A DNA stretch of 64,000 bases, taken from NCBI GenBank assembly GCA_965204535.1, contig OZ241996.1, positions 512,001 through 576,000 of the forward strand. Direction: 5' to 3'. A model generated the notes under the pieces. That model saw only the letters and a list, made by a program, of their open reading frames with translations, was not told where the DNA came from and searched no databases. Numbering within the stretch: position 1 is the first letter of the stretch; every line of letters starts with the position of its first letter. This stretch comes from a bacterium. Its GTDB lineage: Bacteria; UBA8248. This document shows positions 30,260-49,903 of the stretch, piece after piece. A program made the position numbers and the translations under genes.

Positions 30260-30273
30260 ACATCTACCTACCA

Positions 30274-30748
30274 CGCATTTCCCCGCAATTGCCGTACTCT
30301 CTGACATCGCGGATTCCGGTATCGTGCGCGCGTCGCGGGAAAACGATTCGCCCGCATGATTTGGAATGGAACGAAAAGGCGAGGGGGCTTTCTCATGGGA
30401 TCAGGCGAAGGGTCGAGAATGAAGACGGCAATCCCGGAAGAGCGCGGGCGGCTCGCGAGCCGCCCCTACGAAGGCATAAACCTTGCTCCTTGCTCGCGTT
30501 TTGTCACCGAGAGCCGGGGAGGCGCGCTCATGGAACGGGGATGGACGATGAAAATGAAAATAATGATATTTCCCGTAAATATCGAGAAATTCACGGGGTT
30601 TTTCGATAAATTTCTGAAAAATAACGTCCAGATAAATGATTGTAATCAAAAGGGTTATCACATAAATCTGAGCGTTCTGCACTCAGATATAGCGGCAAAA
30701 AAAGTTTTTTGGTTCCCGCGCATTTGCCCGCAACTGCCCGCATTTCCT
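30274..30748 (+). repeat. Non-coding segment homologous, in inverted orientation, to the region upstream of the tandem recombinases; carries 10-bp iterons
   Basis: 30274-30335 versus revcomp 49842-49903 is 57/62; 30526-30585 versus revcomp 49709-49768 is 49/60. Confidence 0.8.
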
Positions 30749-30872
30749 CCCGCGCCGCATCACGCCCACAAACCTTCATTCATCAACCGGGTTTGATCAA
30801 CCAGCATGGCGGCGTCCTGTGCCTTGGGGTATGGTGTCGCCCAACCATTCACCTCCAGATAGGGAACGCGAC

Positions 30873-31886
30873 ATGAAAGTAGGGCTCTTCATCACCAACC
30901 AGCAGTACCTCGAAACCGACATGGTCAGCGCCCTGGACGAGCAGTACGCCATGGTGCGCCTGGCGCGCGACAGGGGCTGGGACTCGCTCTTCACCGGGCA
31001 GCACTACCTGAACGAGGGCAACAACAAGCAGCTCCAGATCGTGCCCTTCCTTGCGCGCTTACAGGCCGAAGCGGGCGAGATGACGCTCGGGCTCGGCATC
31101 CTGCTCATCAACCTGCACAACCCGGTCTACGTCGCCGAGACGGTGGCGACGATGGACGTCCTCTGCCGGGGGAACTTCGTGTTCGGGGTCGGGCTGGGCT
31201 ACCGCGAGGCGGAGTTCGACGCCTTCCGCGTTCCCAAGGGGCAGCGCGTACGCCGCTTCGAGGAGTGCCTGGAACTCGTGAAGCGCCTCTGGACGGAGGA
31301 GGAAGTCACCTGGGAGGATGAGGTCTGCAAACTCGACGGCGTGCGCATGAACATCCGCCCCGTGCAGAAGCCCTACCCGCCGATCTGGGTGGCGGCCAAT
31401 AATGACAGGGCCATCGAGCGCGCCGCCCGCATCGGCGACAACTGGTTCATCAACCCCCACTCCACAACGGCGACCATCAAGCGGCAGATGGCGCTCTACC
31501 GCGCGGAACTCGACCGCTGCGGCAAGCCGTTTCCGGCGGAATTCCCCTGCATCAAGGAGGTCTTCTGCAGCCATGACAAGAAGAGCGCCCTCGAGATGGC
31601 GGGGCCCTATCTGTTCGGGAAGTACCGGGATTACGCCAAGTGGGGCCAGGACGACGCCATGCCGGAAGATGAGAGCTTCGATCAGGAATTCGACGATCTG
31701 CTCAAGGACCGCTTCGTCCTCGGCTCGCCCGAGGAGTGCTACGAGCAGCTTCGCCCCTACTGGGAGGAAGTGGGGATGAACCACCTCGTCATCCGCACCC
31801 ACTGGGCGGGGATGCCGCTATCCACGGCGCTTCACAGCATGCGGATGATCTCGGACGAACTCATGCCGGCGCTCCGGAAGATCTGA
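30873..31886 (+). CDS. LLM-class flavin-dependent oxidoreductase
   Basis: HNPVYVAETVATMD, GVGLGYR..EF, PVQKPYPPIW. Confidence 0.9.
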   Translation: MKVGLFITNQQYLETDMVSALDEQYAMVRLARDRGWDSLFTGQHYLNEGNNKQLQIVPFLARLQAEAGEMTLGLGILLINLHNPVYVAETVATMDVLCRGNFVFGVGLGYREAEFDAFRVPKGQRVRRFEECLELVKRLWTEEEVTWEDEVCKLDGVRMNIRPVQKPYPPIWVAANNDRAIERAARIGDNWFINPHSTTATIKRQMALYRAELDRCGKPFPAEFPCIKEVFCSHDKKSALEMAGPYLFGKYRDYAKWGQDDAMPEDESFDQEFDDLLKDRFVLGSPEECYEQLRPYWEEVGMNHLVIRTHWAGMPLSTALHSMRMISDELMPALRKI

Positions 31887-31970
31887 GGGTTTCCGTGCAC
31901 AACTGGCTGAATCATGGTATAGTGAGGCCATATTAAAATAGCACATGGCCGCAAAATGTGGGGGATCGAT

Positions 31971-32492
31971 ATGTCTGAAAAAAGGATGATATCTTTCGTT
32001 CTCAACGGAGAGCCCGTAGATGCGATGGTTCCCGTGAACCGCTATCTGGTGGACCTCATCCGCGAGGATTTAGGGATGATGGGCACCAAGCGCGCCTGCG
32101 ATCAGGGGGCGTGCGGCTCCTGCTCGATCATCATGGACGGTGAACTCATCAGTTCGTGTCTCGTCCTCGCGGTGCGCGCCGACGGTGCGAACGTCGAGAC
32201 GATTGAAGGCCTCGGCGGCCTCGAGGACCTGCATCCCTTACAAGCCGCCTTCGCCTCATACGGCGCTACCCAGTGCGGCTATTGCACGCCGGGGATGATC
32301 GTCTCGGCCAAGAAACTGCTCGAGGAGAACCCCGACCCCTCCGAGGAGGAGATCCAGCACTGGCTCACCGGAAACCTCTGCCGCTGCACGGGCTATCGCC
32401 AGATCATCTCGGCGATTCGCGCCGTGGCCGAGGGCAGGACCGAACCCGAGGCCCCCATTACGGTTCCCACGGTGAAGGCCTACGACGACTAG
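31971..32492 (+). CDS. (2Fe-2S)-binding protein, CoxS-like
   Basis: CDQGACGSC, QCGYCTPG, NLCRCTGY. Confidence 0.93.
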   Translation: MSEKRMISFVLNGEPVDAMVPVNRYLVDLIREDLGMMGTKRACDQGACGSCSIIMDGELISSCLVLAVRADGANVETIEGLGGLEDLHPLQAAFASYGATQCGYCTPGMIVSAKKLLEENPDPSEEEIQHWLTGNLCRCTGYRQIISAIRAVAEGRTEPEAPITVPTVKAYDD

Positions 32493-32519
32493 TTCCCTCC
32501 TCCCCTAAAGGAGGCCGCC

Positions 32520-32975
32520 ATGAAGCGAATGATCGAACACGTTGCTCTTCGCGTCACGGATCTCGAGAAATCCATCGCGTTCTACCGCGACGTGATGGGC
32601 TTCAAGCCCGTCGGCCGCCGCCTCATCCACGGCGGCGAGATCGACCAGGTCGTCTTCCGCGTGGGAGATGACATCCTTGTTCTCTTTCACGCCGATGATT
32701 TCGTCTCCGACGACGTCGAGGTGAAGGGCGGGATGGATCATCTCGCCTTTTGCATGGATGATGCCGAATACAACGAGGTGATCGACCGCCTGCGCGCCAG
32801 CGGCCGGGAGCCTCACCGCGGCGAGGAGAAGAACCTGGGCGCCTACGGCGTGGGCTACGCCACCTATTTCTACGATCCCGACAACGTGGAACTCGAGATC
32901 AAGCGCTACGACGACCCCCCCGAACAGCCGGGACCCGAGTGGTATGAGAGTGGACGGAAGATGAGCGTCTCCTAG
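32520..32975 (+). CDS. VOC/glyoxalase family protein
   Basis: HVALRVTDL..S..FY, DHLAF, YFYDPD..ELE. Confidence 0.9.
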   Translation: MKRMIEHVALRVTDLEKSIAFYRDVMGFKPVGRRLIHGGEIDQVVFRVGDDILVLFHADDFVSDDVEVKGGMDHLAFCMDDAEYNEVIDRLRASGREPHRGEEKNLGAYGVGYATYFYDPDNVELEIKRYDDPPEQPGPEWYESGRKMSVS

Positions 32976-33354
32976 GCGACCGGCCCCGACTCGCACGCAT
33001 TCCGGCGCCCCCGTGTCGGATTGTTTTCCAAAGTCCGGCCCGCAGCGACTTGAGATTCCCTCGGTGCGGTTTGAAGTGGTTTCCCGGTTCGTCCCACGGT
33101 TTCCGAGCCTCAGTCCATGAGTGAAATGCAAGGTGAAAACGCAATACATGAGGGATGAAAACACGAATTTAACATGAAATTCTTTATATTTATTGTAGTT
33201 GGATTACTATATAATGAAATATGAGTGTGGAGGGGTTCGGCGGCCACAGGCGCTGACGACAAGAGGCGCTTCCATGCCGAGCCCGGGACTTGCAGCGATC
33301 AACTCCAGGAAGGAATCCAAACACGAGGACGGAATTCAAACAGGAGGATCCGAA

Positions 33355-34629
33355 ATGTCTACCACAAGACTCACGGCGGCGGCCATGTTCGTTATGGTCG
33401 CATCATTCTTCATGTTCGCGCATCCGGTGGTCGCGGCCGAGCGCACCGTCAAGATCGCAGCTTGGGGCGCGAAATCCGGACCGTTGCGCTCGTTCGGCGT
33501 CAACTCCGAGGCCGTGCTCAAAGGGGCGATAAAGGCCATCAACGATTCGGGCGGCGTGAAACTGGGCGACGGCACCATGGCCAAGATGGAATTCACTTAT
33601 TACGACTCCGCCTGCAACGCCGATCAGGCCATCTCGATTGCGCGCAAGGTCGAATCGCAAACCGCAGCTTTGGCCGGCATCGGTCCGACGTGCTCCGGCG
33701 CCGCAGCGGCCATGTACGGCATCTTCCAGAAAAAGGTGGACGACAAGTCCGACAGCGGTCTTCAGTTTCCCATTCTCACCGACACCGCGATTCGTCCCGG
33801 CCTTGCCAAAAAGTCCCAATGGACGTTCCGCAACGTGCCCAACGAGATCACCATGTATGACGCGTTGTTCAAATGGTTGCGCTCCAAGTATCCCGACGTC
33901 AAGACGATCTACGGGGGAACCGAGACCGACCAGGCCCACTCCAGGATCACCTTCGCCGCCGTCATCGTCCAAAAGGCCAAGAAATACGGCTTCGAGTGGG
34001 TCGGCGGCGGCATCGAAGGGGTGACCGGCAAGATTATAGCGGGCATGAAGAATGTGCTCAAAGTCTCGAAATCGTCCAACTGGCTGCTTGCCGATACGAA
34101 CTTCTCGGTCCAGGCCCGCGCCTTCAAGAGATCGGGCGCCGACATGATGATCATCTCCTCGCACCCCTTCACCACCTGCGGCATGCTCAAGGAAATGAGA
34201 CGCCAGCGAATCAGGCCGAAGGTGCTCGTGGGACTCACCAGTTCGTCCAGCGCGGAAACCCTCAAGGGTTGCTCCGCCGCCGCGGAAGGCATCTATATCC
34301 CGACCGGCTTCGCTCCGATCACGAAGGCCGCCGCGAAGGTCGCCGCCGCCGCCGCCGCCAACGGCGGAGCAGCCGATCTGCACAGCGCGGCCGCTTGGGA
34401 GAACGCGCACATCATCAAGCAGGTGGTCGAGGCGACCGGCGTCATGGCCAAGCCCGAGACACTGAAGGCCGACAGGCGCAAGGTACGCGACGGTCTCGAA
34501 GCCCTGGTCAAGGTCGATGGACTGATGGGCGAGATCGGTCGGGTCCAGAACGAGGGCGAATCCATCAAACCCTACGTCTTCGTGCAAGCCCAAAAGGGTA
34601 CGTGGAAAGTCGTCCACGATCCACGCTAA
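33355..34629 (+). CDS. Branched-chain amino acid-type ABC substrate-binding protein
   Basis: Signal peptide, SGPL..FG, INDSGG, YDSAC, GPTCS; AGGAGG RBS. Confidence 0.88.
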   Translation: MSTTRLTAAAMFVMVASFFMFAHPVVAAERTVKIAAWGAKSGPLRSFGVNSEAVLKGAIKAINDSGGVKLGDGTMAKMEFTYYDSACNADQAISIARKVESQTAALAGIGPTCSGAAAAMYGIFQKKVDDKSDSGLQFPILTDTAIRPGLAKKSQWTFRNVPNEITMYDALFKWLRSKYPDVKTIYGGTETDQAHSRITFAAVIVQKAKKYGFEWVGGGIEGVTGKIIAGMKNVLKVSKSSNWLLADTNFSVQARAFKRSGADMMIISSHPFTTCGMLKEMRRQRIRPKVLVGLTSSSSAETLKGCSAAAEGIYIPTGFAPITKAAAKVAAAAAANGGAADLHSAAAWENAHIIKQVVEATGVMAKPETLKADRRKVRDGLEALVKVDGLMGEIGRVQNEGESIKPYVFVQAQKGTWKVVHDPR

Positions 34630-34670
34630 CGCAGTCTCCGACCAGGATCGCGACTGGTGGATCCTTGATG

Positions 34671-34721
34671 CGGCGACATGGTGAACAGGAGTTCGAATAG
34701 ATGCTGTTCACCATGTCGCCG
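34671..34721 (+). terminator. 18-bp perfect stem-loop between the SBP and first permease gene (attenuator or mRNA stabiliser)
   Basis: CGGCGACATGGTGAACAG ... CTGTTCACCATGTCGCCG; no U-tract. Confidence 0.5.
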
Positions 34722-34851
34722 GGCCGGGACTGGCGTCTTTCCCAGGAAAGTGCGAGAAAGCATGACTAGGAAGGTCCGATCACGTATCCGGTATTAGTCT
34801 CGCGCGACGCTGATTGTCCCTGGTCGCTGAGGGTACAAATGAGATCAGACC

Positions 34852-35748
34852 ATGAGTGATTTTTTGCTCGAGTTCGTAGAGATCACCCAGACCATCGGCG
34901 ACGGCCTGTTCTTCGGCACGACCTATGCGCTGATCGGCATCGGCTTTTCCTTGATTTTCGGCGCCATGCGAAAACTCAACATGACCTACGCCGCGGCGGC
35001 TCTGGCCGGGGCGTACGTCGGCCTGGCCGCGTTCACCTTCATCAACGCCCCGGCCCCGGTAGTATTCCTGATCTCCGCGCTCGCATCGGGGTTGATCGGC
35101 GGCGCCGTGTATATCACCTGCTTCAGGTTCATACCAATCAACAACCACCTTGCCGCCTTGATGGCTTCCATCGGGGCGCTGTTCTTCATCGACGAGATCG
35201 TCGTGCATACGACCGATGGTTCGCCGCTTACTTTTCCGGCATTGTTCGACGACGTGATGTTCGAAATGGGCCCTTACGGGGTGCGCGGCGATTTGCTTTT
35301 CGTGTTGGCGGTGAACATCGTCAGCACCATCGGACTGCTCTACGTGCTCTACCGAACCCGGCTGGGCTTGGCGACGCGAGCGGTGTCCCAACAGGATGTG
35401 GCGGCTCAGCTCTGCGGCATCGACGTCCATCGGACCAACGCCATCACCTTCGTGCTCGCGGGCTTGCTCGGCGGCATCGCCGGTTCGATGACGGCGTCCG
35501 CTGTCGGCGTGCTGTCGCCGCTGATCACCGTGCCGCTCACGGTCAAAGGCCTGATCGTCGCGGTTATCGGGGGCCTTGGATCGATCCCTGGAGCCATTGC
35601 GGCCGGGTTGCTGGTCGGCGGGCTGGAGAATGCGTTCCTGTACTTCCGGGGCGTCAACGAACGCGATATGTACGTGCTTCTGCTGCTGTTCGTTTTCCTG
35701 GTTTTCAGACCCGACGGTCTCTTCGGATCGGCTGTGGAGCGGGACTAG
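34852..35748 (+). CDS. LivH-like permease, set 1
   Basis: YALIGIGFSLIFG, GGLGSIPGA. Confidence 0.9.
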   Translation: MSDFLLEFVEITQTIGDGLFFGTTYALIGIGFSLIFGAMRKLNMTYAAAALAGAYVGLAAFTFINAPAPVVFLISALASGLIGGAVYITCFRFIPINNHLAALMASIGALFFIDEIVVHTTDGSPLTFPALFDDVMFEMGPYGVRGDLLFVLAVNIVSTIGLLYVLYRTRLGLATRAVSQQDVAAQLCGIDVHRTNAITFVLAGLLGGIAGSMTASAVGVLSPLITVPLTVKGLIVAVIGGLGSIPGAIAAGLLVGGLENAFLYFRGVNERDMYVLLLLFVFLVFRPDGLFGSAVERD

Positions 35749-35754
35749 CCACCG

Positions 35755-36669
35755 ATGTCGTACTACCTCGGCCTCGCCCAACTCATCGGGATTCACACTC
35801 TTCTCGGCTTGTCCGCGTATGTCCTGATGCTGACCGGACAGCTCTCATTGGGCCAGGCCGGCTTCTTTGCGATCGGAGCCTACTCCGCAGGCATTCTCAC
35901 CGTGATTTTCGAAGTACCGATTCTTCCGGCATTGCTCGCGGGCGCGGTCATCGCCGCGTTCTTCGCGTTCATCGTCGGTTTTCCCGCCCTGAGGGTAAAG
36001 GGTCTGATGCTGGTGGTCGCGACCATCGCGTTCGGCGAGTTCGTTCGTCTGTTCTTCTTCAACCTGAGCTGGCGCGTGCCGCGCGGCGACATCGTAGTCG
36101 GACCGGACAGCACCAACGGCTTCCGCGAGATCCGGTATTTCGTGGCGAACGGATGGTCGCCGTGGGAGATCGCGGCCTTCGTCTGGACGTTCGTCATCCT
36201 GGTCATGACGGCGCTGTGGTGGATGGATCGTTCGCGCGCCGGGGCGGTGTTGCGGGCAGTCGGCGAAGATGAACTCGCGACGCAAAGCGTCGGCATCAAC
36301 CTCACCGCGGTGAAGGTAACGGCCATGACCGCCGGCGGCTTCATCGCCGGCATCGGCGGAGCCCTCTACGCGCACACGGCGACCTACGTCGATCACCTCA
36401 CCTTTACCGTGCTGCTCGCGACCTTCGCGGTCTCCTATCCGATCCTCGGCGGCCTCTCGAGCGTGTTCGGCACCCTGGTGGCGGTCGTCTTCATTCAGGG
36501 CGTGCTCGTGGAAGGACTTCGGTTTCTGGGAGATTGGCGCAACATCGTGTTCGGGTTGCTGATCATCATGGCGATGAACCTGAAGCCTTCCGGCCTGTTC
36601 GATGCACGCACCGCCCAGGTCCTGAAACGCGCAGTCGGTCTCGACGGGCAGGAGAAGTCCGATGCTTGA
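35755..36669 (+). CDS. LivM-like permease, set 1
   Basis: GQLSLGQAGFFAIGAY, LRAVGEDE. Confidence 0.9.
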   Translation: MSYYLGLAQLIGIHTLLGLSAYVLMLTGQLSLGQAGFFAIGAYSAGILTVIFEVPILPALLAGAVIAAFFAFIVGFPALRVKGLMLVVATIAFGEFVRLFFFNLSWRVPRGDIVVGPDSTNGFREIRYFVANGWSPWEIAAFVWTFVILVMTALWWMDRSRAGAVLRAVGEDELATQSVGINLTAVKVTAMTAGGFIAGIGGALYAHTATYVDHLTFTVLLATFAVSYPILGGLSSVFGTLVAVVFIQGVLVEGLRFLGDWRNIVFGLLIIMAMNLKPSGLFDARTAQVLKRAVGLDGQEKSDA

Positions 36670-37438
36670 GCTGCGCGGACTGTCGAAACACTTCGGTGGG
36701 GTCAAGGCCGTCGATGAACTGGACATCACTGTTCAAGAGGGCGAGATCTTCGGGTTAATCGGCCCCAATGGCTCGGGCAAGAGCACGACCATCAACCTGG
36801 TCTGCGGTGTGTATCAGGAAACGGCCGGTACGGTTCGATTCCACGAGGAACTGATGAACGGCAAGCCTCCGCACCAACGCCTGCGAGCGGGAATCGCCCG
36901 AACGTTCCAGAATATCCGCCTGTTTCCGAATCTCACCGTATGGCAGAACCTGTGGGTGGCGCAGAACTCGCCCCAGGATATCGCCGCGCAAGGTTTTCTG
37001 TCACGCTGGTTCGGCGCTACCCGCCGGACGCGGAGGGAGATCGCCACCCTGCTCGAACTCGCCGATTTGGAACACAAAAGCGATGAACTCGCATCCAACC
37101 TCGCATTTGGGGAACAACGGCGACTGGAGTTTGCTCGCGCCGCGGCGGCCCGCCCAAAGTTGTTGTTGCTGGACGAACCTGCAGCCGGCATGAACCGCCA
37201 GGAGATCCATGATCTGAGCCAGCGCATTCGTCGTATGCGCGATTCCGGCGTAACGATCCTGCTCGTCGAACACGTGATGGAACTCGTAATGGGCGTGGCG
37301 GAGCAAATCGCCGTTCTCAATTTCGGGCAGAAGATCGCATCCGGGACTCCAGGCGACGTACAGCGGAACAAGGCTGTGCAGGAGGCTTACCTGGGAACAT
37401 CCGACTCGGATGCCCCCTCCCTCGATGCGGGCGATTGA
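36662..37438 (+). CDS. LivG-like ABC ATPase, set 1
   Basis: GPNGSGKS, ARTFQ, LDEPAAG. Confidence 0.9.
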   Translation: MLELRGLSKHFGGVKAVDELDITVQEGEIFGLIGPNGSGKSTTINLVCGVYQETAGTVRFHEELMNGKPPHQRLRAGIARTFQNIRLFPNLTVWQNLWVAQNSPQDIAAQGFLSRWFGATRRTRREIATLLELADLEHKSDELASNLAFGEQRRLEFARAAAARPKLLLLDEPAAGMNRQEIHDLSQRIRRMRDSGVTILLVEHVMELVMGVAEQIAVLNFGQKIASGTPGDVQRNKAVQEAYLGTSDSDAPSLDAGD

Positions 37439-37442
37439 GAAC

Positions 37443-38159
37443 ATGCTGAGCGTTCGGGATCTCGTCACTTCCTACGGAAAAGTGCAGGCGTTGCGAGGCA
37501 TCTGCCTGGATGCGGCCGAGGGCGAAATCACGTGTCTGCTCGGCCCTAACGGCGCAGGCAAAACGACGACCATGTTCACCATTGCAGGCATCCTTTCCCC
37601 CGAATCCGGCTCCGTCGTTTTGAGCGGCGATGACATAACGCGGCTGCCGGCCAGCAAGGTGGTCTCAAGAGGCCTCGCTCTGGTGCCCGAGAACCGTCTT
37701 GTCTTTCCCTACATGAACGTCGAGGAGAACCTTCATGCCGGCGCCTACTCCCGGCGGGCTTCCGAGGCGGAGGTCGCGGCCGATGTCGCGGACATGTATC
37801 GGCGTTTTCCTCGCCTGGAAGAACGCAAGGGTCAGCTTGCGGGCACCCTGTCGGGAGGCGAGCAGCAGATGCTGGCCATTGCCAGGGGTCTGATGAATCG
37901 CCCCGAGATTCTGCTCATGGACGAGCCATCCATCGGGCTGGCGCCGCTGATCGTCAGGGAGATTTTCAACATCATCCGCGAATTGAATGCGGAAGGCGTC
38001 ACGATTTTCCTGGTCGAACAAAACGCCCATATGGCGCTGACTGTGGCCCACAAGTTCTACCTCATCGAAAACGGAGAAATCACATTCTCGGGATCGCCCG
38101 GTGAGCTCGCAGAAGACGAGGTCATTCACCGGGCCTACCTCGGGTCGCAGAAGGGTTAA
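37443..38159 (+). CDS. LivF-like ABC ATPase, set 1
   Basis: GPNGAGKT, LSGGEQQM, MDEPSIGLAP. Confidence 0.9.
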   Translation: MLSVRDLVTSYGKVQALRGICLDAAEGEITCLLGPNGAGKTTTMFTIAGILSPESGSVVLSGDDITRLPASKVVSRGLALVPENRLVFPYMNVEENLHAGAYSRRASEAEVAADVADMYRRFPRLEERKGQLAGTLSGGEQQMLAIARGLMNRPEILLMDEPSIGLAPLIVREIFNIIRELNAEGVTIFLVEQNAHMALTVAHKFYLIENGEITFSGSPGELAEDEVIHRAYLGSQKG

Positions 38160-38186
38160 CGAATACCGGAGTCGTAGGAGCACGTC

Positions 38187-39086
38187 TTGATCGATTTTGT
38201 CCAGAATACGGTCGACGGCATGATGTTCGGTTCGTCCTACGCGCTTCTGGCGATTGGCTTCACGATCATCTTCGGCGTGATGCGCCGGATCAATCTCTCC
38301 TTCGGCGCCACCATCATGCTCGGCGCCTACATCGGCACGTGGCTGCACGTGCATCATCAGGTCAGTGTGTGGATCGTCGCCTTGACGACACTGACGAGCA
38401 CCGTCCTCGTCGGCATCTATGTCGAACGCTTGTGCTTTCACGCCATCCGCCGCAGCGCCGTGCTCGCGTCGATGGTGTCGAGCTTCGTGATCTGGATGCA
38501 GTTGGAGGAAGCTGCAATCCATCTGCTGCCCGAGCGCACCTATGCCTTCCCCGCTTTGCTCGTAGCCGATTCTTTCGAACTCGGCCCCTTTCTGTTCCGG
38601 GCGGAACAGACCTCGATGCTGGCCCTGGCGATGATCATGGTAGGCGTTTTGCACGTCCTGTTGTATCACACCCGTTTTGGTCTGGCGTTGCGAGCGGTCT
38701 CCGAAAGCTCGCTGGCCGCCGCCTATATGGGCATCAATGCGGCCTGGGTCACGCTGTGCGCATTCGCGTTGGTGTCCCTGATCGGCGGGGTGGCAGGCTA
38801 CGCCATATTGTCCACGGATGCGCAGATTACCCCCTTCTTCGGCTTGTGGGCCACCTTCAAGGGTCTCATTGCGATGATGCTGGGCGGCATGGGGTCGCTG
38901 CCGGGCGCGATTCTGGGCGGCTTGCTGCTGGGCGTCGTCGAAGCCCACGCGCTGTGGTATCTGGGCAACGAATATAAAGATCTCAGCACATATCTGCTGC
39001 TGTTCGGGATGCTGGTGCTGCGGCCCGGCGGCCTCATGGGTCAACACATTCTGAGCCGCGAGGCTCTCGCTTTCCGGCGGGTTTGA
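38187..39086 (+). CDS. LivH-like permease, set 2
   Basis: YALLAIGFTIIFG, GGMGSLPGA. Confidence 0.9.
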   Translation: MIDFVQNTVDGMMFGSSYALLAIGFTIIFGVMRRINLSFGATIMLGAYIGTWLHVHHQVSVWIVALTTLTSTVLVGIYVERLCFHAIRRSAVLASMVSSFVIWMQLEEAAIHLLPERTYAFPALLVADSFELGPFLFRAEQTSMLALAMIMVGVLHVLLYHTRFGLALRAVSESSLAAAYMGINAAWVTLCAFALVSLIGGVAGYAILSTDAQITPFFGLWATFKGLIAMMLGGMGSLPGAILGGLLLGVVEAHALWYLGNEYKDLSTYLLLFGMLVLRPGGLMGQHILSREALAFRRV

Positions 39087-39089
39087 GGG

Positions 39090-41488: not shown

Positions 41489-41859
41489 AAATCCTTTTGT
41501 TCATCGTTTTTGCTGTTGGCGGATTGGTGTTGTCGCCGATGTCGGCGGCGGGCGAGCGAAAGGTGGCCGAGGTGGAATGCAAGCCGGCGGAGAAGAAGCT
41601 GGTCTACGACTGCATGATCTCCCTCAAGGGCAAGAAGAGCGGCATGCCGGTCGCAGGCGCCGAGTTCACGGTCGGCGCCGATATGCCGTCCATGCCCGGC
41701 GCCCACAACGTGCGTCCGGTGCCCGCGGAACCGGGCGGAACCCCCGGAACCTACCGGGCGCGGGTTCACCTCGAAATGACGGGAGAGTGGGCGCTCAAGC
41801 TGGATTTCACCAAGCCGGGCCGGGACCGTGTGATCAAGAAGCTCCATTTCGGGGGATGA
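41482..41859 (+). CDS. Secreted YtkA/FixH-like Ig-fold protein
   Basis: Signal peptide, ADMPSM..AH, PGTY, MTGEW. Confidence 0.7.
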   Translation: MLKILLFIVFAVGGLVLSPMSAAGERKVAEVECKPAEKKLVYDCMISLKGKKSGMPVAGAEFTVGADMPSMPGAHNVRPVPAEPGGTPGTYRARVHLEMTGEWALKLDFTKPGRDRVIKKLHFGG

Positions 41860-42361
41860 AAGGGCACGGCGGGCACAAATCCGATATGTCCCATGGCGGT
41901 AAAGGCAAGGCAATGGAGCACGGAGACACGGGAAGAAATAAAATCGATGATTAGACAATAGAGGCGCAGGTAAACCCGAGGGCGCGCTTGTGATTTCATC
42001 AGAATGCCAAGGTGGTAACCCTCAACTTGTGGCCCATTGATAAATAGATTTTTTCTTTTTGAGAACGTATTTCGCGTGGTTAGAGGCGGTGGGGGGTTTT
42101 CAGCGGGCTTAGAATCCTTGTAGTCTGCTGAAAGTATTGCGGGTATTTGTTTATTTTGAGTTTCAGCCGAGGTTCGGTTATCTACGATATGTAATCAAAT
42201 CGGATGCGGACGAATTCTAACTCACGCGTATCTCGTAGCGTCCGTGTCGTTAAGCGTTCGGGCGGGCCGTGATGGACCCGGCGCCGGGCGCATCGCCTCC
42301 ATCGGATAGAATTTTCCCGGGCGACTGGTAACGCGATTCGACATGTGCTAATGATGTCGGC

Positions 42362-44716
42362 ATGAAGATTCGCGCAGAAGCTGTCGAGACGGAGTTGGCG
42401 TTGGCCGAGAGGCCGGATGAGCCATGGCCTCATTCCCCCGGGTTGTCCACAACCGCAGAGGCGTACTGGCGTTCGCTGTACGAGCGCGAGCGTGCGCGCG
42501 CGGAGGCGGCGGAGGCGCGCTGCGAGGAGTTGCGTTGGGCGGAAGTGGATTCCCGCTCCCGTGCGGGCAAGCTGAAGCGGCATCTCGACGCCAGCCGGAA
42601 GAAGCTCGAGGCGGCCGCCGGGGAGGCGAAGGAAGCCCGCCGCGCGGCGAAGGACGCGCTGTCGCTCAAGGCGGAAGTGGCGCGGCTGGAGAAGCTGCTT
42701 GCGGAGGCGGGGGTCGATCCGCGCAAGCGCAGCCCGCTCATGTCGCTGCGCATGGAGGTCGTCCGGCTTCGCAAGGAGCTCTCGGGCGTGCCGTCGCCGG
42801 GGGAGGCGGGGCGGCTGCGCAAGGCCCTGGAGGAGCGCAAGGAGACGATTCATGCCCTGCGCAAGGAGGTCGGCCGGCGGGAGAAGGAAGTTGCCCGGCT
42901 CGAAGATCGTCTGGCCCTGGAGAAGCAGAAGTCGGCGACCGACAAGGAGACCATTCGGAGCCTGGACGAGGAGGCCATCGGGCTCTACAGGAAGTTGAGG
43001 CGATTGCGCGACCAGGCGGAGGTGGTCGAGTCGCTGTCTGCGGAGGTCTACCGTCTTGAAGTCTCCCTGGGGGCCGTAGGCATTGCGACCGAACGGCTGA
43101 AGGCGCGGTTGCTGCGCGCTCTCGAGGCGGCGCGCTCGAAGTCGCCGTCTCGTGCAGATGAGGAACTGCGCAAGGCCCTGGGGAGGTCGCGGCGCCAGAA
43201 GACGGCGCTCAGGTCGCTGTCGAGGGAGAACGGGCGTCTTCGCAGGGCGCTCCGCAAGTCAGAGACCATCCGGGCGCGGCTGGAGGCCGATCTCGCGAAG
43301 CTTCGCGCCACCGGAGCGGTGCTGGCGAGAAGACTGTTCGGGCGCAAGAGCGAACGGCAGGAGAGGCCGCGCTCGGAGCGCAGGCGCGGCCGGCAACCCG
43401 GCGCCGCCGGTCATGGCCGCACCCCGCGGCCCGCGCTCGATGAGAGGACCGAAGTTCGCAACCCGCCGGCCGGTGCGCGCGTCTGCGCCGGTTGCGGGAA
43501 GCCCTACGTGGCCAATGGCGCCGAGGTCTCCTCCATCTTCGAGATCGAAGTCTCGGCCCACAAGCGCGTCATCCGCCGTCCGAGATGGCGCAGGAGATGC
43601 GCGTGCGCGTCGTCTCCGGTGGAAGTGTCGGCGCCCGCCGCGCCGCGCCTGTTCGCGGGCACGCCTTACGGGACGAGCGTGTGGGCGCGCTTCCTGTTCG
43701 AGCGCTACGCCTGCTTCCGCCCGCTGCGCCGGGTCGCCGCGTGGCTCTCCGACCAGGGGCTTCCGGTCTCTGCAGGCACACTGGGCGACAGCACGCACCG
43801 CTTCACGCCGCTCTTCGAGCCGCTGGCTGCGGCGATCCTCGACCGCCAGAACGAAGCGGCGGTGCGTCACGGGGACGAGACGACGTGGCGCGTTCAGTCG
43901 CTTCGCGAACAAGGACGCTCGAGCCGCGCCTGGCTGTGGACCTCGGTCAGCGCAGACTCCGTCTACTTCCACGTCGACCCCTCGCGGAGTGCTGAGGTCG
44001 CGATGAAGCTGTTCGGCGCGGCCGGCTCCCATACGGTCATCGTCTGCGACCGCTACAGCGCCTACAAGAAGCTGGCGCGCATTCCCGGGGGTCTGGTGAC
44101 TCTCGCATGGTGCTGGAGTCACGTCCGGCGCGATTATATCCACTGCGCCGCCGGCGATGAGCGGCTGACGCCGTGGTGCGAGAGATGGATCGAGCGGATT
44201 GCCTTGCTTTACCGCCTGAACGAGGCGCGCCTGGCCAGTTACGACCCGGGCGTCGAACGCCAGGATGCGGCGTTCGACGCGGCGCACGACGAATTGAAGA
44301 AGGCGCTCAAGGACCTGTTCGCGCAGGCCCGACGGGAGATGGCCGCTCTGCCCGCGCAGGCGCGCGAGGGCAAGGCGCTTCGCTCGCTGCTGAACCACCG
44401 CGAGGGGCTGAGCGTCTTCATCGAACGCCCCTCGGTGCCGATGGATAACAACGCCAGCGAACGTGCGCTTCGGGGCCCTGTGATCGGCAGGCGGCTCTCG
44501 TTCGGCTCCGACAGCGAGGCCGGCGCCAGGTTTACGGCGATGATGTACTCGGTCCTCGGAACCCTCGCGTCGAACGGGGTCGACCCGCTCCGCTGGCTGG
44601 AGGCATGGCTCACGGCCTGCGCGGAGAACGGCGGCCGGGCGCCCGGGGACCTCTCCGCGTGGCTGCCCTGGTCGATGAGCACGGAGCGCAGGCGCGCCCT
44701 CACGGCGCCGGGATGA
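42362..44716 (+). CDS. IS66-family transposase with about 320-aa N-terminal coiled-coil extension
   Basis: LFGRKSE, CAGCG zinc finger, HGDET, CDRYSAY, CWSHVRR, DNNASERALR. Confidence 0.9.
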   Translation: MKIRAEAVETELALAERPDEPWPHSPGLSTTAEAYWRSLYERERARAEAAEARCEELRWAEVDSRSRAGKLKRHLDASRKKLEAAAGEAKEARRAAKDALSLKAEVARLEKLLAEAGVDPRKRSPLMSLRMEVVRLRKELSGVPSPGEAGRLRKALEERKETIHALRKEVGRREKEVARLEDRLALEKQKSATDKETIRSLDEEAIGLYRKLRRLRDQAEVVESLSAEVYRLEVSLGAVGIATERLKARLLRALEAARSKSPSRADEELRKALGRSRRQKTALRSLSRENGRLRRALRKSETIRARLEADLAKLRATGAVLARRLFGRKSERQERPRSERRRGRQPGAAGHGRTPRPALDERTEVRNPPAGARVCAGCGKPYVANGAEVSSIFEIEVSAHKRVIRRPRWRRRCACASSPVEVSAPAAPRLFAGTPYGTSVWARFLFERYACFRPLRRVAAWLSDQGLPVSAGTLGDSTHRFTPLFEPLAAAILDRQNEAAVRHGDETTWRVQSLREQGRSSRAWLWTSVSADSVYFHVDPSRSAEVAMKLFGAAGSHTVIVCDRYSAYKKLARIPGGLVTLAWCWSHVRRDYIHCAAGDERLTPWCERWIERIALLYRLNEARLASYDPGVERQDAAFDAAHDELKKALKDLFAQARREMAALPAQAREGKALRSLLNHREGLSVFIERPSVPMDNNASERALRGPVIGRRLSFGSDSEAGARFTAMMYSVLGTLASNGVDPLRWLEAWLTACAENGGRAPGDLSAWLPWSMSTERRRALTAPG

Positions 44717-44720
44717 CGCC

Positions 44721-45593
44721 GTGACCGAGTGCCGCTACCACGGACGCGACTTCACGACGGAAGAGATGGCGCTGCTGCGCGAACTGATCGCAGGTCCACC
44801 TGCGCTCAACCGCCATGCGCTATCGAAGGAGTTCTGCCGCCGAATCGGCTGGTACAAGCCCGACGGCGGACTCAAGGACATGATGGCCCGGGTGACTATG
44901 CTGGCCATGCACAAGGACGGCCTGATCACGCTGCCCCCACCGAAGTGGCGCCAGAACCGGCCCGGGCCGATCGTCTTCGGACCCGACACCGAACCTCCCC
45001 TCATCCCGGCGCCTGAGACCCTCGACGAAGTCCGCCCCCTCGATATGCGCGTCGCCGTGCGCGGAACCCGCGAGGGCAGGCTCTGGAACGAGTTCGTCGC
45101 CCGCTACCACTACCTCGGCTACAAGACCCTCGTCGGCGCGCAGATGCGCTACGCCGTCCACGACCGGGGCGGCAGGCCCCTCGCCATGCTCGGCTTCTCC
45201 ACCGCCGCGTGGAAGCTCGCCCCGCGCGACAGCTTCATCGGCTGGACGCCGCAGCTGCGCGAGAAGAACCTCCCCCTCGTGGTCGACAACCCGAGGTTCC
45301 TCATCCTGCCATGGATCAGGATCCTCAACCTCGGCTCACACCTCCTCGCCATCATCCGCAGGCGCCTGCCCGAGGACTGGACCGAGCGCTATGGCACGAC
45401 ACCCGTCCTCGTCGAGACCTTCGTCGAGACGCCGCGCTACACCGGCGCCGTCTACAGGGCATCGGGGTGGATTCACGTCGGTATGACCCAGGGGCGTGGA
45501 CGCTACGACAGATACACGAAACGAGACCAACCGAAAAAGGACATCTGGCTACGACCGTTGCGCAGAAACTGGAAGCAAGTCCTCAACCGGTAA
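44721..45593 (+). CDS. DUF4338 family protein (DruA-like label; Mom/GNAT-like fold inferred)
   Basis: WNEFVARYHYLGY, RDSFIGW, NPRFLILPW, ETFV, YRASGW..G.TQGRG. Confidence 0.85.
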   Translation: MTECRYHGRDFTTEEMALLRELIAGPPALNRHALSKEFCRRIGWYKPDGGLKDMMARVTMLAMHKDGLITLPPPKWRQNRPGPIVFGPDTEPPLIPAPETLDEVRPLDMRVAVRGTREGRLWNEFVARYHYLGYKTLVGAQMRYAVHDRGGRPLAMLGFSTAAWKLAPRDSFIGWTPQLREKNLPLVVDNPRFLILPWIRILNLGSHLLAIIRRRLPEDWTERYGTTPVLVETFVETPRYTGAVYRASGWIHVGMTQGRGRYDRYTKRDQPKKDIWLRPLRRNWKQVLNR

Positions 45594-45662
45594 AATCATC
45601 CCCCATTCCGGCCCGAACTACTGCTTCAAGGCACTACCATCACGGCCCGCCCGAACGCTTAC

Positions 45663-46347
45663 GCAGAAGCTGAAGCGGCGCATAGTAAACATCCGATGCG
45701 GATGCGTCCTTTAGCTCTACAATCACCAGGCGGCCTTGCGGATCGACGGCAATCTGATCGATCTCGTTGCTCTTTTTCCTTTGCGGCAACATCGCCCAGT
45801 GGTCTCTACGGGAAGGCAGCTTCCGCTTGGATGCAACGATGGCGCCCAGTTGAACATACGCATCGTCGATCTTCTGGCACTCCATGGCTTTCGCCTTTTC
45901 CGTTTCGGACTCGTAGGCGAGCACAGCATCCCGGTCGAAGGGTACCCAGGGCTCCGTGACACGCGACCAGCGTGCCTGTATGCCGCCCTCACGCGCCGTC
46001 TGCGCTTCGGCTACGGCCACGTTGTCCAGGTAGTTGCTCAGCGTCTCCTCGAAGCCAGGTTCCTGGGTGTTCCATTCCCGGAACAGACCCCCTGCACAGG
46101 GTTGTGTCGTGTACGTACTTTCTGCCGTAAAGTCGGCCATCCCGTTTTTCAGACGTATATCGACAAGCTTTGTAAGGCCACAGTAGACGATTACCTTATC
46201 GTCCAAGCGCAGATGCACATCGAGATGGCAGCGAGCGACCTTCCGCTTCGAGAGTGCAAGCAGTGGCGCGAGAAATCCTCCCGGAGACAGGAGCGCCTGC
46301 ATCTCCGGCGAAGGTGCGCGATCATAGGTGGGTTTTGGCGTCATCAT
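45663..46347 (-). pseudogene. PD-(D/E)XK-like hypothetical protein truncated at its 3' end by the IS66 element
   Basis: IDQIAVD...IVELKD motif; the frame runs into the IS right end. Confidence 0.6.
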
Positions 46348-46415
46348 GTACCTCCCGGCATTGACAGCGGTGGTGCATCCGAGAGCCTGAGCATTATACT
46401 CTCCGCCTTCGCCGC

Positions 46416-47054
46416 TTAGCGCACCTCTATCATGAGGTATCGGAACTGCTGATTGGCAGCTTCACCGAAGCTGAAATAATCTCTCCAGACACAATCGTAA
46501 GAACCTTTCAGACGTATTGGTTCTTCCCTGCCATTCGTGGTGCCCTTAGCGGCTTTAGGGGACCATGCCATCTCACCCGAAATCTCTCTGCCTTGGTGGA
46601 GACGAAAATCGGCGTCAATCGTCGATCTCGAAGAAAATTTCCAGTAGGACGGATCATTCGTCAGTAAAATCGCATATCCTGTTTTTGCGGGCTGGAAATC
46701 GGCCACTAATCGCTCAAGTCTCTGGATATCATTGAGAAAATCGTATCGGCCTTGATCTGGTGCGCTTTGATCCTTGAGCGCAAAGGCTTCTTTCTTCCAC
46801 TCCTGGGCTAGTTTTTTGCTCCGGTATTTGAGTTCGATTGCGACCCCCACGCCCGGAAGCCAAATGTCCAAATACATCCTTTCATCTTGGAAAGGCTTGT
46901 ACTCCAGGCGAATTTCATCGCTCGGCATTGCCTTGTGAAGCTGCCAGGCAAGAGCATGCTGAAAATCCGCTTCGGAGTGAAAGATCGGACGTTCTTCTTT
47001 CAAGTTCTCCATCAGTCCGGATACATCCAGCGTAATCAATTGAGCCTCCATCAA
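46416..47054 (-). CDS. Hypothetical protein, PD-(D/E)XK nuclease-like
   Basis: SEADFQH...LE...LDIW...AIELKY...DIQRLE; lower GC. Confidence 0.65.
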   Translation of the reverse strand: MMEAQLITLDVSGLMENLKEERPIFHSEADFQHALAWQLHKAMPSDEIRLEYKPFQDERMYLDIWLPGVGVAIELKYRSKKLAQEWKKEAFALKDQSAPDQGRYDFLNDIQRLERLVADFQPAKTGYAILLTNDPSYWKFSSRSTIDADFRLHQGREISGEMAWSPKAAKGTTNGREEPIRLKGSYDCVWRDYFSFGEAANQQFRYLMIEVR

Positions 47055-47160
47055 TTTACACGCCTGCCTGTCACAAGCTATTCCACTCCATCGACCTGGT
47101 CTTGCAGGTTACTATCACAGCATCCGCTATGTATTGTTCGCAAGCCTCCCCCCAGCCTAC

Positions 47161-48330
47161 TCAGAGAATATCCTCCGCGATGCTCTCCGCGACCCGCCCG
47201 GCCGCCTCCTGGGCCGAGTCGCGCGCGAGGTGCGCGTAGCGCGCCGTCGTCTCCATCTTGCTGTGGCCCAGGAGCTTCCCGATCACGGGGAGCGCCTCGC
47301 CGAGCGCAAGCGCCCGCGAGGCCCAGGAGTGGCGCAGGTCATGGATCCGCACGCCTTCGAGACCCGCGCGCTCCCTTATCGTTCGCCAGGCCTCGTCGAC
47401 GTTCCTCAAGGGCGTCCCCGGCTTCCTCCCCGGTATGACCCAGGGGCCGTCGTGGGCGCTCAGGAGACTCGCGAGGAGCTCGACCGCCTGCGGCGGGAGC
47501 GGGACCGCCCGCGCGCCCGTCTTGGAATCGGGCAGCCTGAGTTCGGCCGCTTCGAGCGCCACATCCTCGCGGCGCAGCCCGAGCACCTCGCTCCTGCGGC
47601 ACCCGGTAAGCGCCAGGAGCCGGATGGCGGCCACCGCGGACGCGGACGCGCCGCCCCGGGCCTCCGCCTCCTCGAGCGCCTCTCCCAGGCGGGTGAACTC
47701 CGAATCCGTCAGGAACCGCTCGCGCCTGCGCTCGGGGTATTTGACGAGAGCCTTGCAGGGATTCGGGGTTCCCTCGGGAACCATTCCCCAGCCCGCGGCC
47801 AGGCGGTACATCGAGGAGAGGATGCGGAGCGCCGTGTTCGCCACCGCGGGCGTCTCGTAGAGGCTCTCGTGGAATTCCGCCACCTGCGCGCGAGAGAGCG
47901 CGGCCAGCGGCAGCCTGCCCAGGGCGGGCAGGACGTGGCGGTCGATTACCGATCGGTAGAGCGCGGCGGTGCCCGGCCTGCAGCGCACCGCGACGTATTC
48001 CGTGAGATAGCGCGCGCACACCTCATTCACCGTGGGGCCTCCCGCCGGCTTCATCGGCTCGGGAACCGCCTCCTCGCCCGCCTTGATACGCGCGATGATG
48101 TGGGCGGCGCGTTTTCTCGCCTCGTCGGCGTTGATCACCCCGTGGCGGCCCACGGCCACGCGTTTGGGACCCTCGGGCCCCCGCGCCTGGGCGACGTAGA
48201 CCTTGCTCCCGGTGGGATAGACCCTCACGCCGAAGCCCGTGAGCTCCCGGTCCCAGTACACCGTGTCCTTCTCCACTTTCAATTTTGCGACCGCGCGGTT
48301 CGACAGCGTTTTCATGACGGGCTGTTTCAT
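47161..48330 (-). CDS. Tyrosine recombinase/integrase with N-terminal arm-binding domain, copy 2
   Basis: WDRELTGFGVRV, TGCRRSE, DSKTG, HDLRH, LGH, RYAH. Confidence 0.93.
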   Translation of the reverse strand: MKQPVMKTLSNRAVAKLKVEKDTVYWDRELTGFGVRVYPTGSKVYVAQARGPEGPKRVAVGRHGVINADEARKRAAHIIARIKAGEEAVPEPMKPAGGPTVNEVCARYLTEYVAVRCRPGTAALYRSVIDRHVLPALGRLPLAALSRAQVAEFHESLYETPAVANTALRILSSMYRLAAGWGMVPEGTPNPCKALVKYPERRRERFLTDSEFTRLGEALEEAEARGGASASAVAAIRLLALTGCRRSEVLGLRREDVALEAAELRLPDSKTGARAVPLPPQAVELLASLLSAHDGPWVIPGRKPGTPLRNVDEAWRTIRERAGLEGVRIHDLRHSWASRALALGEALPVIGKLLGHSKMETTARYAHLARDSAQEAAGRVAESIAEDIL

Positions 48331-49511
48331 CCGTGCTCAACCCTCCCGTTGGCGACGTGGGCGCCGATGTTCCCGCCCACCCGCACCGCCGCCTCCCTCT
48401 CGGCCTCGCGCATCAGGTGCGCGTAGCGCGCGCTCGTCGCCACGCTCGTGTGGCCGAGGAGTTTCCCGATCGTGTAGAGGCTCTCGCCCAGCGCCAGCGC
48501 CCTCGACGCGTAGGAATGCCTGAGGTCGTGAAGCCTTACGTCTGCGAGCCCCGCCCGCTCCCTTACGGGCCGCCAGTAGTGGTGCAGGCCCGTGAGGCGT
48601 TTTCCCGGCCTTTGGCCCGCGATCACCCAGGGGTTCTCCCCGGAGCGGGGGATGGCGTCCAGTATCCTGAGTACGGGCCTGGTCAGGGGGACCATCCGGG
48701 GACCCGCCTTGGCGTCCCTGAGTCTCAGGTCCCCAGCCGTGCGGTCCACGTCGTCCCACCCGAGATTCAATATCTCGCCCCTGCGGCACCCGGTAAGTGC
48801 GAGCAGCCGGATGGCCGCGATAGCGGGCGGCCATACCCCGCCCTCCGCCTCGGCTTGCCTGAGCGCACGGCCCAGCCTCCGGTATTCCTCAGGCGTCAGG
48901 AACCGCTCGCGCGCCTGCGTCCTGTAGCGGCGCACGGCGAGGCAGGGGTTCCGCCCGGGCGGGACCAGCTCCCACGCTTCGGCAAGTACGAACATGCGCG
49001 AGAGCAGATGGACCGCCTGGTTCGCCAGGACCGGCGTATCGCGAAGGTCGTGATGGAGCGCCGTGACTTCCGCTCCGCCGATCTCGGTAAGCGCCGTCCC
49101 GCCCATGGCCGGCAGGATGTGTTTGTCGAGCACGGTGCGGTATGCGGCAACGCTGGCGGGCTTCAGGTGTTTCTCCACGTGGGTGCGCATGAAGCGTTCG
49201 GCGAGTCCCGCCACGGTGGTCTCCGCCCCGGGCGCCGCGGCGCTGAAATCCTCGCCGCGCTTGATGCGGTCGATAATGAGGGCGGCCTGTTTCCTGGCCT
49301 CATCGACGGCCAGCTCCCCGTGACGGCCGAGCGTCACGCGCCTGGGACCCCCGGGTCCCCGGGACTGCACCACCCAGGTCTTTCTGCCGGTGGCGTGGAC
49401 GCGCACCCCGAAGCCCGCCAGCTCCCGGTCCCAGAAGACGCCGTCCTTCCCGTCGGCCTCGAGCGCGTCGACGGTGCGCTTGGTGAGTTTCAGATCGCTT
49501 CGCTTCGGCAT
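48327..49511 (-). CDS. Tyrosine recombinase/integrase with N-terminal arm-binding domain, copy 1
   Basis: WDRELAGFGVRV, TGCRRGE, DAKAG, HDLRH, LGH, RYAH; GGAGG RBS; 4-nt overlap with copy 2. Confidence 0.93.
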   Translation of the reverse strand: MPKRSDLKLTKRTVDALEADGKDGVFWDRELAGFGVRVHATGRKTWVVQSRGPGGPRRVTLGRHGELAVDEARKQAALIIDRIKRGEDFSAAAPGAETTVAGLAERFMRTHVEKHLKPASVAAYRTVLDKHILPAMGGTALTEIGGAEVTALHHDLRDTPVLANQAVHLLSRMFVLAEAWELVPPGRNPCLAVRRYRTQARERFLTPEEYRRLGRALRQAEAEGGVWPPAIAAIRLLALTGCRRGEILNLGWDDVDRTAGDLRLRDAKAGPRMVPLTRPVLRILDAIPRSGENPWVIAGQRPGKRLTGLHHYWRPVRERAGLADVRLHDLRHSYASRALALGESLYTIGKLLGHTSVATSARYAHLMREAEREAAVRVGGNIGAHVANGRVEHG

Positions 49512-49708
49512 GTTCCCTCCTGAATCTGTAATCAAAACGCATACGTACGGCATCAAAGCGGGGGCTATTCGAGCATATATTTGGCGAAAGCGCAAGGGGT
49601 AGCTGGGTACGGAATAACAGAAAAATGGTATTATAAACAATCAGTTATCGTAGACAAGCGGAGCCAATCATACTATCGCGCCGACACCGGGTTCATGACA
49701 ATGATTAA

Positions 49709-49903
49709 TCGAATTTTACGGGAAATAGGATTATTTGCATTTTTATCGTCATTCCCGAATCCATGAGCATGATTTCTCTCCTCAAAACGATTTCCGTCCC
49801 TTCCTGAAGACGGTGCGTGGGCGGCGATTACCTCTTTTCTTCGCCGCGCGCACGATACCGCAGTCCGCCATGTCAGAGAGTACGGCAAATGCGGGGAAAT
49901 GCG
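49709..49903 (-). repeat. Region upstream of the recombinases, inverted homolog of 30274-30585
   Basis: Two aligned blocks, see the 30274 feature. Confidence 0.8.

Follow-up and report, generated by a model that had tools for sequence, protein, structure and literature searches.

The 64,000-nucleotide stretch analysed here (the window, positions 512001-576000 of contig C1 in the 4.56-Mb source genome G000, which consists of contigs C1 and C2) contains a 19.6-kb segment at 30274-49903 that is bracketed by two diverged, inward-facing repeats with tandem 10-bp motifs (10-mers). Are these repeats the ends of one mobile or invertible segment, and if not, what are they? A sequence-only reading had taken them for element ends and the 10-mers for arm-type binding sites of the adjacent recombinases. 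The underlying observation is confirmed: 30274-30335 matches the reverse complement of 49842-49903 at 57 of 62 positions, 30526-30585 matches that of 49709-49768 at 49 of 60, a repetitive extragenic palindrome (REP) lies between the blocks of the left copy (30446-30465), three further 10-mers are present at 30719-30748, and twin genes with Arm-DNA-bind_3 and Phage_integrase domains (Pfam) adjoin the right copy. The interpretation is largely wrong. Almost certainly, the two repeats do not delimit a single mobile segment; they belong to a set of about 65-70 dispersed directional units. A unit comprises a left arm (A arm), an AT-rich array and a right arm (C arm), and these arms define the orientation of the array.

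Dispersed units with a common grammar

Tandem 10-mer pairs occur 139 times in the genome, as compared to about 12 expected from an order-4 Markov simulation, and a control search with the reversed pattern gave 0 matches. Profile searches of the genome returned 16 copies with both blocks and 67 matches to the array and C arm, so the blocks are not private to the segment. Two other copies match block A of the left copy at 60 and 58 of 62 positions, above the 57 of the right copy, and three others outscore the right copy for block B. Among the relatives compared (denoted by G codes, with a genus set of 22 for the virion genes discussed below), the left unit was matched in 14 of 18 genomes of the same genus and in 0 of 12 outside the genus. 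For the most part, the units have been retained by vertical descent.

In the grammar that the units follow, a tandem CGCATTT(G/C)CC pair is separated by 25 unconserved bases from a TAnnnT-like hexamer; then come a variable spacer, an AT-rich array of about 60 bp, and a variable C arm that often carries an IHF-like site plus extra 10-mers. The 10-mer pair is usual, not universal. A hexamer [TCG]AnnnT occupies the fixed position in 42 of the 51 left pairs facing an array (background 2.9%), in 10 of 16 pairs facing an array from the right, in 7 of 14 solo pairs, and in 0 of 28 10-mer runs facing away. On the C side, the IHF-like motif accompanies 19 of 65 arrays (background 1.4%). Because the left arms fall into 17 sequence families (of 26, 8 and 3 members, plus 14 singletons), it is this motif grammar, and not a whole sequence, that the units have in common.

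In being intergenic, present in dozens of copies, and gained or lost in REP-rich spacers, the units resemble dispersed repeats of the REP or miniature inverted-repeat transposable element type. They differ in the lack of visible target duplication (none seen by eye at the 23 complete units of G000), in usually having no terminal inverted repeats, in their 17 unrelated left-arm families, and in their regular, directional spacing. Target duplication was likewise not found at four syntenic loci without the unit in G000.

Could the two blocks still delimit, as inverted ends, an element or invertible segment of 19.6 kb that carries the enclosed monooxygenase and transporter genes? The inward-facing homology is real, the ATP-binding cassette (ABC) transporter block is accessory, and among the 61 array matches in G002 one variant is confined to these two arrays. 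Against this stands that G002 and G016 have both units intact and in the same orientation, with the same 11.4-kb gene block between them and the gene order of the window kept around 30272-41937, in the absence of the integrase and of the IS66-family insertion sequence (IS). Orientation is unchanged in the three relatives in which both flanks could be placed, and just 2.6 and 2.5 kb are enclosed in G003 and G031. Seven other facing pairs in G000, scanned for 82 of 93 open reading frames (ORFs), enclose rimP-nusA-infB-rbfA-truB-pnp, lepA, ksgA and eno, and also obgE, serS, mreB and selAB; since such core genes lie inside, facing pairs are not mobile ends. Neither unique paired ends, target duplication, nor moving cargo or both orientations were found, and an element with these ends is very improbable. 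For 30101-50100, four sequencing runs contributed short contigs of which no piece spans the region; among the joints listed, with 108 others outside the listing, none linked the two arrays, and these reads speak neither for nor against inversion or excision.

A one-sided spacing rule

Arrays were located with one pattern, tandem second matches within 100 bp were merged, and both G000 contigs were treated as circular. Merging reduced 61 matches to 58 loci in G002, 70 to 62 in G011, 67 to 64 in G031 and 75 to 66 in G008, and gave 23 + 42 loci in G000; six well-assembled relatives contain 57-72 array loci each. Among 315 gaps in five genomes, facing gaps (+ then -, as in the window) have a median of 17.8 kb, and 54 of 88 are shorter than 25 kb. 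Same-strand gaps have medians of 54 and 62 kb (6 of 139 below 25 kb), and back-to-back gaps a median of 98 kb (1 of 88). An empty zone adjoins the arrays on one side, the A side, and the inward-facing arrangement remarked upon in the window is recurrent and non-random.

Strand permutation yields P <=0.0005 in four relatives and 0.0012 for contig C2 of G000. The bias is replicated in G014 (P 0.0008; 58 loci from 67 matches, 3 on other contigs dropped and 6 merged), in G034 (P 0.0002; 72 from 82 matches) and on contig 3 of G004 (P 0.0096; 47 loci from 60 matches in G004), and weakly in G007 (P 0.03; 55 loci from 96 matches, after dropping 16 single-mismatch matches without a nearby 10-mer pair). 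Rounded lengths touch one wrap-around gap each in G001, G007 and G034. The arrays of G007 lie mostly elsewhere, with 4 of 19 placed ones orthologous to those of G000. In G000, the bias holds both for 34 arrays with an adjacent A-arm promoter and for 18 without a promoter. Spacing is also even, with a coefficient of variation of 0.56-0.85 versus 0.97-1.89 for REP controls. Unit orientation displays no link to replichore or GC-skew strand (15 vs 13, 19 vs 24).

Such spacing might arise if the units were transcription-activated replication origins, in analogy to those of phage T4, in which an activator-dependent promoter and an AT-rich unwinding element would drive local amplification of the chromosome in producer cells, as if the run-off origin of Bartonella had been multiplied. 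The even spacing and the succession of promoter and AT-rich array in 51 cases would fit, and run-off replication has a precedent in the Bartonella gene transfer agent (GTA) BaGTA (PMC5786225). We regard this explanation as improbable: no phage initiator, primase or helicase was found at the virion loci read, the bias tracks array orientation even without a promoter in G000, and back-to-back origins should tolerate closeness, yet only the single short gap noted above is of this kind.

A probable promoter module shared with phage virion genes

Solo 10-mer pairs head the lysis operon, the operon of the small terminase subunit TerS (PF11985), the two-ORF GpA-like large subunit TerL with the portal gene, the operon from protease-capsid to tail tube, and the tail operon ending in the tape-measure gene. 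The complete virion set (PHROGs and Pfam) comprises holin, Mu gp27-like TerS, GpA-like TerL, portal, protease-capsid, tail tube and tape measure, located in blocks at 955-961, 977-980 and 990-998 kb of C2 and 369-376 kb of C1, with host genes between. The module of 10-mers and -10 hexamer is found upstream of the capsid gene in 23 of 24 loci (the single miss is a truncated contig), upstream of terL in 21 of 21, and upstream of the terS operon in 19 of 27 (automatic match). As the same module heads virion operons, the 10-mers are likely activator boxes and not arm sites of the integrases, outside whose element they are located; a role as promoter activator boxes is, on this positional evidence, quite probable.

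Capsid, terL, terS, tail tube, tape measure and a 126-aa Xis/Cox-like gene are present in the same 20 of 22 genus relatives, the virion genes in single copy, and the capsid gene occurs in 33 of 41 genomes of the family. With dN/dS ratios (nonsynonymous over synonymous substitution rates) of 0.12-0.27, the virion genes are under purifying selection. G009 and G010, on separate branches, lack all six genes and keep 1 and 3 10-mer pairs, while 18 relatives hold 37-141 pairs (37 in G001, 92 in G007). The capsid and pnp trees, with one host gene compared, agree at the tips and not at deep nodes: 7 of 18 splits are shared, 7 of 13 strong capsid splits are recovered, and the patristic Spearman correlation is 0.73.

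The virion set is likely a domesticated phage forming a GTA-like regulon. Two of the features by which GTAs are recognized (PMC9662315) are found here, namely caudoviricete-derived particle proteins and a genome endogenised across multiple loci. With RcGTA, CcGTA, BaGTA and DsGTA the set has in common split loci, single copies, purifying selection, and one shared activator-type promoter; for CcGTA, GafY and IHF are described to co-activate the main cluster plus about 18 accessory promoters (bioRxiv 10.1101/2023.11.12.565669). It differs from the known GTAs in its unrelated Mu/lambda-like ancestry, in a TerL encoded by two conserved ORFs, and in about 65 dedicated directional arrays.

In the GpA-like TerL of G000 (C2:976837-978539; L116:6837-8536), the ATPase and nuclease ORFs overlap by four bases, and the split is natural, since most of 21 genomes show this junction as well. 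The terS gene seems N-terminally frameshifted or truncated in G004 (C2:893115-893686) and G015 (C31:27168-27662), due to either decay or assembly error.

The Xis/Cox-like protein (G000 C2:955921) is co-inherited with the virion set, and its nearest look-alikes are excisionase and Cox proteins. It displayed no Pfam or PHROG match and no significant match in the PDB; a single-sequence structure model reached a predicted local distance difference test score of 51 and is not usable, and 5 matches were obtained among cluster representatives. The leader of its operon (G000 C2:955200-956301; L115) contains a strong sigma-70 promoter, an IHF-like site, an AT array and a long conserved hairpin; the array also reads as a short ORF, and the leader may be an attenuator.

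This locus invites another explanation, by which the arrays serve the Xis/Cox-like regulator as operators or decoys, the units act as promoters of short RNAs or titration sinks that set the particle-gene switch, and spacing is a by-product of chromosome organisation. The leader array lies behind a canonical TTGACA-17-TATATT promoter and co-varies with the dispersed array of each genome (G001, G007), and the look-alikes named above suit such a regulator. A one-sided exclusion zone of 25-50 kb has no reason among decoys, though; an Rfam scan of 29900-50300 returned no match, and a link to the GC-skew strand is missing. This makes the explanation unlikely.

Arrays as possible packaging starts

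We tentatively favour, at a little under an even chance, the reading that the arrays are directional packaging-start (pac-like) sites of a gene transfer agent. In producer cells, an activator, for which the Xis/Cox-like protein is a candidate, would induce the virion operons at the same time as the units. The bendable array would become wrapped around the small terminase, and each array would launch a headful packaging run of roughly 30-50 kb that crosses its A arm and continues beyond, with packaging initiated at these sites and not at random. The two runs of a facing pair would in this case diverge, and such sites could lie near each other; between same-strand sites a spacing of about one run length would be required, and between back-to-back sites one of about two. 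Mobilisable elements would exploit the array as a multi-copy attB site. The observed 0 : 1 : 2 pattern of gaps would follow from a one-way, limited-distance process starting at each array, if this runs toward the A side.

The array of the xis locus points A-ward into the lysis, terS, terL and capsid genes, and pac and cos phages package in that direction, toward terS, terL and capsid. Direct repeats and a bendable AT/CG pattern near a promoter, as expected of a pac site, are found in the arrays. SPP1 pac is described as made of direct repeats, spanning promoters, with AT runs separated by CG/GC pairs (PMC4737164). The likeness to SPP1/SF6 pac thus lies in the direct repeats, the promoter overlap, and AT runs with CG/GC steps suited to wrapping by TerS. 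These phages have one site per genome at terS; here, dozens tile a bacterial chromosome.

Several points weigh against a packaging function. The nearest array, that of the xis locus, is separated from terS by about 4.8 kb on the upstream side, with the xis-like and lysis genes in between, and does not lie in or just before terS as a pac site would. The putative recognition helix of TerS varies among genomes with the same array, and 18 of 65 arrays have no promoter. A packaging site has no evident need of a promoter of its own. G015 and G033 have the virion genes, 4 10-mer pairs each and no dispersed arrays found; because they keep the genes in this way, the units are not needed for retaining them. 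In G000, the tail tube gene is interrupted by an IS, being open in the 20 relatives. The candidate activator is named from co-occurrence and from a language-model look-alike at 0.90. As to the spacing rule, the bias is not significant on contig C1 of G000 (P 0.057), on contig 2 of G004 (P 0.13) and in G001 (P 0.37; 28 of 28, one unit type); in G007 the bias exists where the promoter points against the array and is absent for the 25 arrays with a promoter along it; and 31 of 40 sampled arrays in G031 are orthologous to those of G000, such that these kin are not independent.

The array as target of a twin-integrase element

The right copy is a genuine recombination junction, the attL site of a twin-integrase element, and to this extent the sequence-only reading was correct. 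At the junction (49707-49722, - strand), the host array continues to CGAT (49708) and the element begins at 49707; the orthologues of the right array in G002 and G016 are intact and represent the empty target. Among 44 related integrase loci surveyed, 23 have the same left end. The AT array precedes 23 of these 23, a 10-mer pair within 600 bp is seen in 14 of 23 and none in 9 of 23, and alphaproteobacterial loci have the pair in 0 of 7 cases. By this survey, the 10-mers are host-side and the element has a repeated motif of its own, TTGATG...TGCG..TTGATTAC, located at 49528-49557 (- strand) in the window, present in 22 of 23 same-clade left ends and matched strictly in 2 of the 7 alphaproteobacterial loci. 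A related motif also occurs inside right ends, and we infer that the internal TTGAT motif may be the true arm-type or regulatory site. The CGCATTT 10-mers lie outside the crossover and are not required at junctions, as arm-type sites would be. That the AT array is the insertion target of the element can be stated with high confidence.

Among 12 integrase loci in G000, 4 use the window-type junction, 5 a second junction and 3 neither; the second junction lies 21 bp away in opposite orientation, and two element clades use the two crossover points. In three sister elements, the right end lies 34, 38 or 49 kb downstream, with the C arm after it; two of these right ends share AATACGAT with the left end, one CGAT only. 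Two sisters encode TrwC relaxase and HTH_17 proteins, and no Pfam family of a mating pore (type IV secretion system) was found in 92 of 119 ORFs scanned of these two. Att sites and an empty target, and for the sisters a relaxase without its own pore, point to integrative mobilisable elements. Arm-binding integrases mark mobile elements according to one report (PMC8138268). The element resembles integrative mobilisable elements with arm-binding tyrosine integrases in its arm domain, short core crossover, TrwC relaxase and HTH_17 gene, and differs from them by two tandem full-length arm-domain integrases and by a multi-copy intergenic array as target.

In the window copy, integrase 1 (48327-49511, - strand) and integrase 2 (47161-48330, - strand; Arm-DNA-bind_3, SAM-like and Phage_integrase domains) are about 50% identical, and both have intact catalytic residues (R-K-HxxR-H-Y in integrase 2). 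Passenger ORFs follow at 45663-47054 (- strand), one of 212 aa and a second cut by IS66, with no Pfam match and a GC content of 0.49 and 0.58. The IS66-family element (42250-45662, + strand; transposase plus DruA-like ORF, Pfam) has unrelated flanks and marks a deletion; beyond it, the right end (attR) of the twin-integrase element and the C arm of the unit are missing, and the window copy is a remnant without relaxase. Of the 13 IS66 copies in the genome, 10 are flanked by an exact 8-bp duplication, 2 tandem copies have shifted ones, and the window copy has none. Its fixed passenger ORF is DruA (DUF4338)-like (44721-45593 in the window), and several genome copies stand in tandem.

A network of att sites kept and shuffled by twin-integrase elements, with units as old insertion scars and 10-mers as arm sites, is a further conceivable origin of the units; asymmetry would then reflect remnants of islands and the loss of direct copies lying close together by deletion. 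Indeed, 9 of 12 integrase loci in G000 begin at an array-type junction, arm and flank swaps are seen at arrays, and deletion between direct copies would account for same-strand exclusion. On the other hand, G001 and G007 have units, virion genes and 37 and 92 10-mer pairs without any twin integrase, in G024 and G026 many twin integrases occur and 10-mer pairs are missing, and 9 of 23 left ends lack the pair. The 34 arrays with the A-arm promoter still adjacent are biased as well, and deletion cannot tell facing from back-to-back pairs. We rate this origin as distinctly unlikely. A related idea, in which the arms would be a reversed attP remaining in the chromosome, was given up after surveys of the upstream regions of virion operons and of integrase left ends.

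Some observations on sister elements and arrays are added here. C1:183298-221379 and C2:2956352-34606 of G000 are near-identical (99.3-99.9%) copies of a 38-49-kb element; one copy spans the C2 end and start, and C1 and C2 may be one chromosome split there. A cas1-like gene lies within a sister mobilisable element (L190:16085-16975), and in G018 a twin-integrase element is inserted in the array of the xis-like locus. At one array in G031 (L256), the C side matches one G000 site and the A-side flank lies beside another (C2:738544, 2560765).

The two units of the window and the genes between them

The left unit (30274-30748, + strand) is complete and unoccupied, one of the 23 complete A-to-C units in G000, with orthologues in G002, G016, G003 and G031. 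Its tandem 10-mer pair (30274-30293, + strand), putative activator boxes at about -58 to -39, is followed by the -10-like hexamer TATCGT (30320-30325, + strand) at the fixed spacing of the family. A scan for canonical sigma-70 promoters gave 0 in this unit, as expected if the -35 element is replaced. The REP-like palindrome of the spacer is absent from the G016 orthologue. The array (30562-30622, + strand) consists of AT-rich 10-11-bp units in which A/T runs are parted by CG steps, with the integrase crossover point after 30586; going by the spacing rule, it is a candidate pac-like site. A degenerate IHF-like site (30633-30645) and the 9-bp inverted repeat of C-type arms (30666-30688) follow, and the triple 10-mer (+ strand) closes the C arm with no -10 after it. 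A coding role of the ORF across block B, array and C arm (30356-30796) was rejected: the 10-mer offsets of 132/133/123/127 mean that copies differ by indels that are not multiples of three. The right unit (49708-49903, - strand) retains the host A arm, with the 10-mer pair at 49903-49884 and the -10 at 49857-49852 (- strand), and the left half of the array, but has lost its C arm.

Next to the left unit lie genes for an LLM monooxygenase, a CoxS-like 2Fe-2S protein and a VOC protein (30873-32975, + strand; Pfam). In G003, an array pair encloses this block only, over 2.6 kb, and in G031 an orthologous pair 2.5 kb apart encloses it by spacing. The double branched-chain ABC transporter and YtkA-like block (33331-41937, + strand) sits between both units in G002 and G016 and at other loci in G012, G011, G005, G003, G031 and G008. 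The suggestion that the segment contains cargo thus holds insofar as the ABC block is accessory; integrase cargo it is not. Synteny and junctions resolve the 19.6 kb into a 2.5-kb block, an 8.6-kb accessory block and a 7.8-kb element remnant, from which we infer the order of events that built it. The rare variant unique to the two arrays of G002 complicates so simple a history, because these arrays probably exchanged sequence.

After YtkA, 41938-42249 resembles a flank in G008 and G018 and not the C arm of G002 and G016. On the A side of the left unit, 22478-30259 contains two restriction-modification cassettes between direct repeats, one with an Eco57I-type methylase plus partner and the other with a 1580-aa Type ISP enzyme; other DNA is in its place in G002, and the region is absent in G016.

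Significance

GTAs are not known to have defined motifs for the packaging start: DsGTA, the one with mapped packaging peaks, has seven of them, packages both ways from these, and shows no identifiable motif there (PMC5786225). Our literature search, with most subscription journals outside its reach, found no paper on a GTA in this lineage, and none that describes start motifs tiling a genome or such repeats as targets of twin arm-domain integrases. With dozens of candidate starts that are defined in sequence and orientation, an exact prediction can be made, namely read ends at known coordinates with one-sided decay, for which G009 and G010 (virion genes lost) and G015 and G033 (sites never spread) are natural controls. 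The one-sided spacing rule is a new signal of chromosome architecture, unrelated to replichores, and the array sites double as integration hotspots and appear to be rearrangement breakpoints.

Taken together, we envisage a three-layer system of a GTA-like regulon, directional arrays tiling the chromosome, and mobilisable elements targeting these arrays. It is possible, as a broader and more tentative picture than the packaging function itself, that a GTA seeded the chromosome with about 65 oriented, co-activated starts, which were spaced by selection so as to tile the genome and adopted as landing pads by two clades of twin-integrase elements. If true, these elements would be placed at the start of packaging runs, which would amount to programmed genome-wide lateral transduction.

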